A DNA stretch of 64,000 bases from IMG/VR virus record IMGVR_UViG_3300045988_010208. One strand, given 5' to 3'. Source of the stretch: a virus. Lineage: Duplodnaviria; Heunggongvirae; Uroviricota; Caudoviricetes. Position numbers and translations under genes: made by a program. The number at the start of each line of letters is the position of its first letter. Positions within the stretch are counted from its first letter, which is position 1. Shown here one piece after another: positions 5,871-6,014 of this stretch. Under the pieces are notes generated by a model. That model saw nothing but the letters and a program-made list of their open reading frames with translations, had not been told where the DNA came from and searched no databases.

Positions 5871-6014
5871 AATTATCTTTGTAGATGAGCTATTAAGCTT
5901 ACCTGTGAGTATGCGACCACAAAGGGTGAAAGGGTAAATTCTAGATTCAAACCCAACAAGGCACATCGCTACAGACCTTAAGCAAGTCTGGGTAGCTTAT
6001 CTACAAAGATAATT
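5871..6014. repeat. Long hairpin E: 22-bp inverted repeat (single G-T position) enclosing ~100 nt
   Basis: AATTATCTTTGTAGATGAGCTA at 5871-5892 and TAGCTTATCTACAAAGATAATT at 5993-6014; sits between element D and tRNA-Lys. Confidence 0.6.

Follow-up and report, generated by a model that had tools for sequence, protein, structure and literature searches.

The tRNA region of a Felix O1-like phage (Felixounavirus), represented by IMG/VR virus record IMGVR_UViG_3300045988_010208, raises a question about a long inverted repeat. At positions 5871-6014 of the analyzed stretch of 64,000 nucleotides (nt), referred to here as the window, two complementary arms enclose a spacer between tRNA-Asp (which ends at 5589) and tRNA-Lys(UUU) (which starts at 6019). 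Is this repeat only a cleavage signal in the tRNA transcript, or does it belong to an RNA gene? A preliminary description of the window had proposed that the stem is a substrate of RNase III and could set a processing boundary. Our comparison with related phages indicates that the whole locus (named element E) is very probably a structured RNA gene on the + strand. The best explanation, to which we give an even chance, is that its long helix (P1) closes a Y-RNA-like non-coding RNA of ~144 nt and defines the ends of this RNA.

The left arm AATTATCTTTGTAGATGAGCTA (5871-5892) and the right arm TAGCTTATCTACAAAGATAATT (5993-6014) are separated by 100 nt and form Watson-Crick pairs at 21 of their 22 positions. 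At the remaining position G5887 faces T5998, and in RNA the two would form G·U; the coordinates and pairing given in the preliminary description are thus confirmed. Folding of the region, which that description had suggested, lengthens the helix by two U·G pairs (5893-5894 with 5991-5992) to 24 consecutive pairs (21 Watson-Crick and three G·U). The fold energy of the element is -50 kcal/mol (z = -4.8), and none of 200 shuffles folded as well. The arms are the most perfect inverted repeat listed for the window and the only one of 22 nt with at most one mismatch within 300 nt, and such a repeat was present in none of 100 dinucleotide-preserving shuffles. Promoter-like sites are located at 4717, 4808 and 6268 with no + strand terminator between them, which places E inside one tRNA transcription unit, as had been supposed when the stem was assigned to a polycistronic tRNA transcript.

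The 431 nt around E have matches in 252 phage records, with identities of 95-99% in 203 of these, and the element is present in more than 250 genomes of Ounavirinae. At least 37 related loci were extracted and yielded 18 distinct E sequences of two deeply different types: type 1 comprises the window and most Felixounavirus, and type 2 comprises Mooglevirus, SUSP phages and some recombinant Felixounavirus such as DaR-2019a. The arms exist in at least five sequence versions, and every version still pairs, with mismatches that are mostly G·U. Many arm positions differ between the two types while pairing is kept, and in type 2 one whole base pair is gone from both arms. An alignment of 17 distinct sequences from three deep types (alignment A2), including the metagenomic loci L083 and L085 (Ro60-like protein 62% identical), was then analyzed by RNAalifold, which recovered P1 and an inner hairpin (P4). 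For the 24 pairs of P1 together with P4, 97.9% of cells are paired, compared with 33-43% when the partner is slid by 1-3 columns, and 10 pairs show double-sided changes, compared with 0-1 in the slid controls. P1 alone has double changes in eight of its pairs and 97.5% of cells paired; the corresponding values for the five pairs of P4 are two and 100%.

The strand is also indicated by these comparisons. Four of the five arm substitutions within type 1 give G·U on the + strand, where the - strand would have C·A. At each of the 13 loci measured, the + strand also forms the better fold. A covariance model finds a single copy in the window (155 bits on the + strand and 51 on the - strand) and one copy per relative. 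The + strand covariation and the tolerance of G·U pairs support the earlier view of a stem that acts as RNA.

Further examination of the interior revealed conserved motifs. The P4 loop has the consensus YUUWAGCAA and is seen as UUAAGCAA, CUUUAGCAA, CUAUGCAA and CUUAGCAA; it sits on compensatory stems (CAGAC/GUCUG, CAAAC/GUUUG, CAGUC/GACUG and GUUC/GAAC), and the YUUWAGCAA/CUAUGCAA loop is retained on differing stems in loci L083-L089. The P2 box GAGUAKGCGA (5907-5916) is present in every lineage, with the forms GAGU-GCCGA, AGUAUGCGG, GAGUAGGCAA, GAGUAGGCGA and GGUAGGCAC in other lineages, and the stem around it changes from UGUG/CACA to GGGG/CCCC in L083. The apical box of P3 (AUUCUAGAUU/AUACUAGUAU) is kept in the closer lineages with its CUAG core preserved. 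By inspection, the outer stem of P3 covaries (GGGU/ACCC, GAGC/GCUU in type 2 and GGGAC/GUCCC in L085), and a different hairpin takes the place of P3 in L084 and L086.

More distant relatives show the same arrangement. In L084, L086, L087 and L088 (Yersinia phage P778), the Ro60-like protein encoded near E is 53-56% identical to that of the window. Across L083-L088 each locus has its own basal stem of 20-27 base pairs (bp) around recognizable interior motifs; the stems of L084, L086, L087 and L088 carry a few mismatches or internal loops. The covariance model found no copies of E in the Ro60 loci L033-L037 (29-40% identity). Comparative evidence thus shows RNA-level selection on P1, P4 and some interior boxes across many lineages. 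It had been predicted that the stem would be kept and the loop sequence would not; covariation bears out the first half, and the second fails, with interior motifs being kept where the arms are completely different. Because these motifs persist where the arms share no sequence, E is to be regarded as a structured RNA gene and not only as a cleavage signal.

Salmonella phage DaR-2019a (L003, 2631-2776) is a type 1 phage with a type 2 interior and a breakpoint in the left arm of P1, and its hybrid stem still pairs via added G·U pairs. Its type 2 interior in a type 1 phage indicates that the E cassette has been exchanged between lineages. A pattern scan of viral contigs with ATTCTAGATT...CTACARACC gave extra hits with a constant span of 49 nt, which are unrelated protein-coding sequence.

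The inner hairpin P4 links E to four other elements of the window (A-D, Table 1) that share a common frame. The order of this frame is a lower helix, a 5' AGA bulge opposite a 3' G, the helix AGACC/GGUCU and then NNUNNCAGCAA. The lower helices of A-D covary (UGAC/GUCA, UUGC/GCAA, GAGC/GCUC and UUAC/GUAA). P4 forms a miniature version of it (CUAC-AGACC-UUAAGCAA-GUCU-GG-GUAG) and fits the A-D frame, but has no insert and lacks the C of CAGCAA. The likeness between the inner hairpin and A-D that had been noticed in the preliminary description is supported by the count of AGACC-N2-8-AGCAA in the window (nine occurrences, compared with 1.3 expected), five of which are located in 5037-5985. Matches at 8413, 13564, 13783 and 14405 are inside open reading frames (ORFs), have no GGTCT partner and were treated as chance. 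In L084 the entire E RNA is enclosed in a canonical frame.

The frame detector alone is unspecific (~15 hits per strand in the window), and only clustered, strand-biased intergenic hits were used. Elements A and B begin 4-5 nt after one tRNA and stop ~8 nt before the next; being placed so tightly between tRNAs, they would have their ends defined by tRNA processing. Element D, whose last 2 nt overlap P1, contains a T-arm (5794-5810), a closed 7-bp acceptor hairpin (5811-5828) and a D-arm (5831-5845), in that order, and ARAGORN calls a cloverleaf solely after circular permutation. The acceptor hairpin covaries between genera (ACTCGGC/GTCGAGT, ACACG/CGTGT and ACCCTTC/GAAGGGT). A T-arm, a closed acceptor-like stem-loop and a D-arm are the design of YrlA Y RNA (PMC4201824), and the arrangement in D is the same (PMC4201824). 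Element D is a YrlA-like permuted tRNA mimic, apparently undescribed for Felix O1-like phages.

Table 1. Positions in the window of the parts of element E and of related or neighboring features
Feature	Position	Strand	Evidence or setting
P1, 5' strand	5871..5894	+	Left arm (5871-5892) plus two U·G pairs
P2 hairpin region	5899..5929	+	Minimum free energy fold; contains conserved box GAGUAUGCGA (5907-5916)
P3 hairpin, GGGU...ACCC	5932..5954	+	Fold; apical box AUUCUAGAUU (5938-5947)
P4 hairpin, CAGAC-CUUAAGCAA-GUCUG	5972..5990	+	Fold and covariation; most conserved interior feature
P1, 3' strand	5991..6014	+	Right arm (5993-6014) plus G5991 and G5992
Linker UAAU (4 nt) and tRNA-Lys(UUU) (6019-6094)	6015..6094	+	tRNA prediction
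Ro60-fold protein gene (predicted), DUF2828 and DUF7788/vWA	3283..4698	+	Pfam, AlphaFold (AF2) and Foldseek; candidate protein partner
Element A, framed RNA	5030..5107	+	Frame motif; between tRNA-Glu and tRNA-Met
Element B, framed RNA	5196..5262	+	Frame motif; between tRNA-Met and tRNA-Asn
Element C, framed RNA	5648..5727	+	Frame motif; upstream of D
Element D, UUAC-AGA-AGACCG...CGGUCU-G-GUAA round permuted tRNA-like module	5735..5872	+	Frame; ARAGORN after permutation
Element F, long-stem RNA, 26-28 bp, 38-nt interior	7522..7611	+	z = -4.55; 1 nt before tRNA-Leu(UAG)
Element G, 16-bp hairpin, no insert, F-like arm	6550..6584	+	4 nt before degenerate tRNA-like sequence (~6589-6668)

The candidate protein partner is encoded by ORF 3283-4698. 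Its AF2 model, built from a 61-sequence alignment, has a predicted local distance difference test (pLDDT) score of 90 (the single-sequence model, with a pLDDT of 45, was unusable). Each of the best 11 Foldseek matches in the PDB is to a Ro60/TROVE protein over its full length (Ro60 of Xenopus and human, Deinococcus Rsr and Ro60 of Thermus phage phiLo), and the matches after those 11 are isolated vWA domains only. Sequence and profile searches of the PDB with this ORF returned nothing, and Ro60 was seen just via the alignment-based model and Foldseek. Over its full length the protein shares ~33% identity with the "Ro-like RNA binding proteins" of mycobacteriophages, and it is 98% identical to its orthologue Bas63 gp130 (bas63_0130). 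Roughly 2,270 DUF2828 homologues were found. On the structural model, ORF 3283-4698 is thus predicted to have the Ro60 fold. E starts 1,173 nt past the stop codon of this gene on the same strand, within the ~4 kb from a Ro60 orthologue that serves as a criterion for YrlA-type Y RNAs (Chen et al. 2014).

Frames also occur beside Ro60-like genes of other phages. In Klebsiella phage KP13-26 (L090, 4540-5510; Stephanstirmvirinae), whose Ro60-like protein is 47% identical, five frames directly follow the gene, two of them with tRNA-like inserts, and a 20-bp stem (z = -4.1) stops 2 nt before tRNA-Lys(UUU). These frames and the stem are all unannotated. In Aeromonas phage LAh_8 (L091, 1369-2960; 43% identity; no tRNAs nearby), seven tandem frames of ~60 nt are located just upstream of the gene; their seven helices are different and complementary, with seven hits on the + strand and none on the - strand. 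LAh_8 also has an unannotated tRNA-like sequence at ~1369-1440, and the annotated start of its Ro60-like coding sequence (2866) probably overruns two frame RNAs. On the strength of these sequence features, we lean slightly toward placing E in the Ro60-linked set of framed RNAs.

Two observations concern the surroundings of the Ro60-like gene. A DUF5681 ORF (2831-3202 in the window) is directly upstream of this gene in all Ounavirinae-like loci examined. In Serratia phage BF (L093, 2256-9449), one small ORF separates the Ro60-like gene from a nearby RNA ligase gene, and a gene for tRNA nucleotidyltransferase lies ~3.3 kb from the Ro60-like gene; this RNA-repair neighborhood recalls the bacterial rsr-rtcBA operon.

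The comparison of E with known systems places it closest to Y RNAs in locus, size and design, and closest to RNase III processing stalks in its helix. Like the Y RNAs of Salmonella and Mycobacterium (YrlA/YrlB), Deinococcus (Yrn1/2) and phage phiLo (Yrl1/Yrl2), E is located on the same strand as a Ro60 homologue, ~1.2 kb away, and its two termini pair in a long stem around a large interior with several branches. Its length of 144 nt (~120 nt if trimmed by RNase III) is at or above the usual range of 80-130 nt. Moreover, E lies beside the YrlA-like element D and other RNAs in one precursor, as in M. smegmatis (PMC4201824; PMC12135203). Unlike YrlA, E has no T-loop or D-loop, and neither ARAGORN nor Rfam gave a tRNA signal in 5871-6014; unlike the stems of Y RNAs, its stem is a perfect duplex of 22-24 bp with no recognizable bulged Ro-binding helix. 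The motif that it shares with its neighbors (AG-helix, YUUNCAGCAA, helix-CU-G) also differs from those of Y RNAs. Binding of E to Ro60 is a prediction.

Like RNase III stalks (16S/23S rRNA stems, T7 early RNA and T4 tRNA precursors), P1 is a helix of at least two turns and of the 24-position length, and it is formed by sequences on either side of a functional RNA, within a polycistronic transcript in which tRNAs are also present. A further parallel is offered by species 1 and 2 (rnaC/rnaD) of the T4 tRNA cluster, small stable RNAs of ~120-140 nt with unknown function that lie among tRNA genes and are released by tRNA-processing enzymes; T4 is not known to have a Ro60 homologue. Retron msr/msd RNAs also have inverted repeats (a1/a2) at both ends of a structured non-coding RNA of ~150 nt, and this class was rejected for E, there being no reverse transcriptase gene nearby and no Rfam match.

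In the proposed mechanism, E would be read from the + strand within the polycistronic tRNA transcript. Because P1 abuts tRNA-Lys, RNase P cutting at the 5' end of this tRNA (6018/6019) would define the 3' end of E, and P1 would clamp both ends and block exonucleases. E. coli RNase III sites are duplexes of 24 positions (PMC6212723), and this enzyme takes part in T4 tRNA maturation (PMC4810235). P1 of the window is an uninterrupted duplex of about two turns (24 consecutive pairs), and other lineages have 20-28 bp. Since P1 is exactly one RNase III footprint, the host RNase III probably cuts mid-helix, which would leave a core of ~120 nt with a stem of ~11 bp and would also part the upstream Y-like RNAs from the Lys-Met-Ile tRNAs. 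By analogy with these substrates, we consider cleavage of E by RNase III about an even bet. The mature E would be an accessory Y-RNA-like partner of the phage Ro60 protein, via the P4 motif common to A-D. The RNase III proposal of the preliminary description is therefore plausible as a maturation step, and it leaves the conserved interior unaccounted for.

Several points weigh against a Y-RNA-like E. The detailed pairing of P2 and P3 is only putative. The covariation is strong but, as judged from the sequences, comes from a handful of lineages and few independent events, and the covariance model (R1) misses the versions in L086-L088, so that the homology of these rests on position and motifs. 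Unlike bacterial and phiLo Y RNAs, E has no conserved GNCGAAN0-1G/CGAA motif: the window has UGCGACC at 5912-5918, GCCGAAG is found just in Sf19-like type 2 sequences, and most type 2 sequences have GCCGAUG. Lacking both a tRNA-like domain and this motif, E cannot be classed as YrlA. In addition, RNase III sites in vivo usually have a G-C at the central pairs (PMC6212723). A site centered on P1 would have U-A/A-U flanked by G-C pairs in the window and C-G/A-U in type 2; in lacking a central G-C in the window, and in the mismatches and internal loops that interrupt the helix of distant lineages, E differs from RNase III stalks.

The remaining points against this reading come from phages without an intact E. 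The Bas63 genome (MZ501086) carries a copy of E at 82910-83051 (150.7 bits), which is almost exactly the annotated - strand coding sequence bas63_0138, and bas63_0137 overlaps element D. A PhageMaP preprint reports that the Ro60-like Bas63 gp130 counters the ppl defense, and on RNA partners it merely speculates that "some tRNA genes are possibly Y RNAs" (10.1101/2024.10.10.617714). In the six conditions that we read in its supplementary tables, barcode insertions scored +0.03 to +1.07 in 138 and +0.27 to +0.88 in 137 (10.1101/2024.10.10.617714). On the ppl host, the scores were -2.87, -3.35 and -3.65 for 130, +0.87, +0.39 and +0.18 for 138, and ~+0.6 for 137 (10.1101/2024.10.10.617714). Since 138 insertions are harmless in all six conditions, those on the ppl host included, E is dispensable and not individually needed for the anti-ppl effect. 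The lesion in each case is a short barcode insertion at one Cas9 site, and row 138 apparently represents just one variant. The motif, moreover, is common to five RNAs, so that this result may be explained by redundancy of A-D with E or by an innocuous insertion. Moreover, in Salmonella phage SP116 (L007, 5454-5625) a clean natural deletion fuses the T-loops of D and tRNA-Lys(UUU) and takes half of D, all of E and most of tRNA-Lys, which likewise shows E to be dispensable. This deletion is evidence of recombination between tRNA-like T-loops.

Two other genes in the PhageMaP data set may be mentioned here. Knockout of 129 (the DUF5681 ORF) is harmful throughout (-0.9 to -3.5), with a score of ~-2.5 for the ppl host. 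For insertion in gene 148, tRNA-Ala(UGC), the ppl host gives -2.75, -1.45 and -2.04, compared with +0.2 to +0.8 in the sheet before it, which makes this gene, besides 129 and 130, a second ppl-specific hit inside the tRNA array.

Among the other explanations, the one that survives best is that the helix exists only for RNase III cutting, as a boundary or insulator in the tRNA transcript, and that the 96-nt interior has no function. An uninterrupted 24-bp helix fits one RNase III footprint, the enzyme has a role in T4 tRNA maturation, similar long stems lie just 5' of the first tRNA of other sub-clusters (element G without any insert), and E is dispensable. A functionless spacer, however, would not keep the YUUWAGCAA loop on compensatory stems and the GAGUAKGC box where both arms have been rewritten, nor would it explain why P4 bears the motif of the A-D RNAs. 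We therefore regard a pure processing stem as unlikely.

The position of E next to one particular tRNA suggests a further possibility, a leader dedicated to tRNA-Lys(UUU) that controls the RNase P maturation or stability of this tRNA or, once RNase P has cut, shields the upstream RNAs from 3' exonucleases. In 12 of 13 loci, including the other subfamily represented by KP13-26, P1 stops 1-4 nt before tRNA-Lys(UUU) (10 nt in L084), and this adjacency holds though the neighboring tRNAs and their order vary among lineages. E and tRNA-Lys were also lost together in SP116, and elements F and G share this geometry before other tRNAs. A leader of this kind leaves the conserved interior unexplained; insertions in 138 and in tRNA-Lys (139) cost no fitness in the sampled hosts, so that no dependence is visible, and the adjacency could be mere inherited gene order. 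Its probability is low in our judgment.

Two other tRNA sub-clusters have a long stem directly before their first tRNA; these stems belong to elements F and G, which are related to E. The interior of F contains UUAUUACAGCUU and UUGUUGCU, and in the Rfam scan F gave just a chance hit resembling a microRNA precursor. The L083 copy of F has a rewritten stem, one arm of which (UCUUUGUAGAUGGCUA) is almost identical to the arm of E in the window, and the 3' junctions of the L083 F and the window E match (AAAGAU..UUUAAUGG, followed directly by the tRNA). From the same geometry, the nearly equal arm and the matching 3' junctions, we infer that E, F and G are paralogous modules. The tRNA-like sequence after G is not called by ARAGORN, yet has a good T-arm/acceptor at 6644-6670; relatives hold tRNA-Arg(UCU) at this position, and an HNH endonuclease ORF (6635-7033) overlaps its 3' half. 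Given this overlap, a homing endonuclease may have invaded a tRNA gene here.

A DNA-level element (a recombination or homing-endonuclease palindrome, a cruciform or a miniature transposon with terminal inverted repeats) is very improbable. The tRNA region is mosaic and includes the HNH endonuclease ORF, the DaR-2019a breakpoint falls within the left arm, and arm sequence recurs at 6574-6590; but the great majority of differences between arms are compatible with G·U on just one of the strands, a bias that makes no sense for DNA, and the arms covary instead of keeping their sequence. The transposon was rejected on its own account, as there is one copy in the window and in each related genome and the flanks (GGT and TAA) show no target-site duplication. 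A small protein-coding gene (bas63_0138 on the - strand, a 33-aa ORF at 5836-5937 on the + strand or an 85-aa ORF at 5709-5966 on the - strand) is scarcely credible: several GenBank records do annotate a "hypothetical protein" here and ORFs exist on both strands, but coding is excluded because near-identical phages differ by interior indels of -1, -2 and -3 nt within these ORFs, types 1 and 2 preserve base pairing and not codons, and the annotated ORFs vary in strand and extent, with no family assigned in the annotated record examined.

Two simple signals were also considered. E does not look like an intrinsic terminator: its stem is A+U-rich and followed by UAAUGG, and no + strand terminator-like site was found in 4500-7300. 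A sigma-70 promoter in the right arm (GATAAT at 6008-6013, 5 nt before the tRNA 5' end) was rejected, as it has no -35 element, is unreported by the promoter scan and is not conserved in L083 or F. An Rfam scan of 4500-10800 at E-value ≤ 1 gave no match at 5871-6014, just tRNAs and chance hits; the E RNA is undescribed in Rfam and in the searchable literature.

Existing annotations over C, D and E are of interest in this context. In phage REP6 (L002, 549-679), a "tRNA-Thr(GGT)" of 131 nt with an intron is annotated over these elements; it was rejected because its acceptor stem does not pair, the tRNA finder having been misled by C and D. Bas63 (L096, 6749-7023) has the - strand "hypothetical proteins" bas63_0137 and bas63_0138, and record L001 (1611-1848) has two + strand "hypothetical proteins" over RNA elements. 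Thus, RNA genes of these genomes have been mis-annotated in GenBank, several as "hypothetical proteins" and some as an "intron-containing tRNA-Thr".

Beyond a Y-RNA-like E, a broader and more tentative proposal, which we think possible but would not favor, is that E, F and A-D form a new family of "framed" phage RNAs, which would be analogous in function to Y RNAs but use a different recognition motif (AAG-helix, YUUNCAGCAA, a variable insert and helix-CUG). Such framed RNAs may travel together with a distinct clade of phage Ro60 proteins (DUF2828/DUF7788) in at least three unrelated groups of phages (Ounavirinae, Stephanstirmvirinae and Lahexavirus). E may be a specialized member that has become fused to tRNA-Lys(UUU), in which case the helix may couple the release of the Y-like RNAs to the maturation of a tRNA targeted by several host defense systems, and the whole module may serve the anti-defense role genetically shown for Bas63 gp130.

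Among phage Ro60 proteins, Bas63 gp130 alone has a genetic phenotype, the countering of ppl, and its RNA partners have so far been guessed. The present analysis supplies conserved RNA candidates with coordinates, namely E and the framed RNAs A-D, of which D is a YrlA-like tRNA mimic, with the published insertion data tempering expectations for E alone. With these candidates, the frame motif that recurs beside Ro60-like genes in unrelated phages and the existing knockout tools, RNA binding by phage Ro60 becomes directly testable in an E. coli phage.

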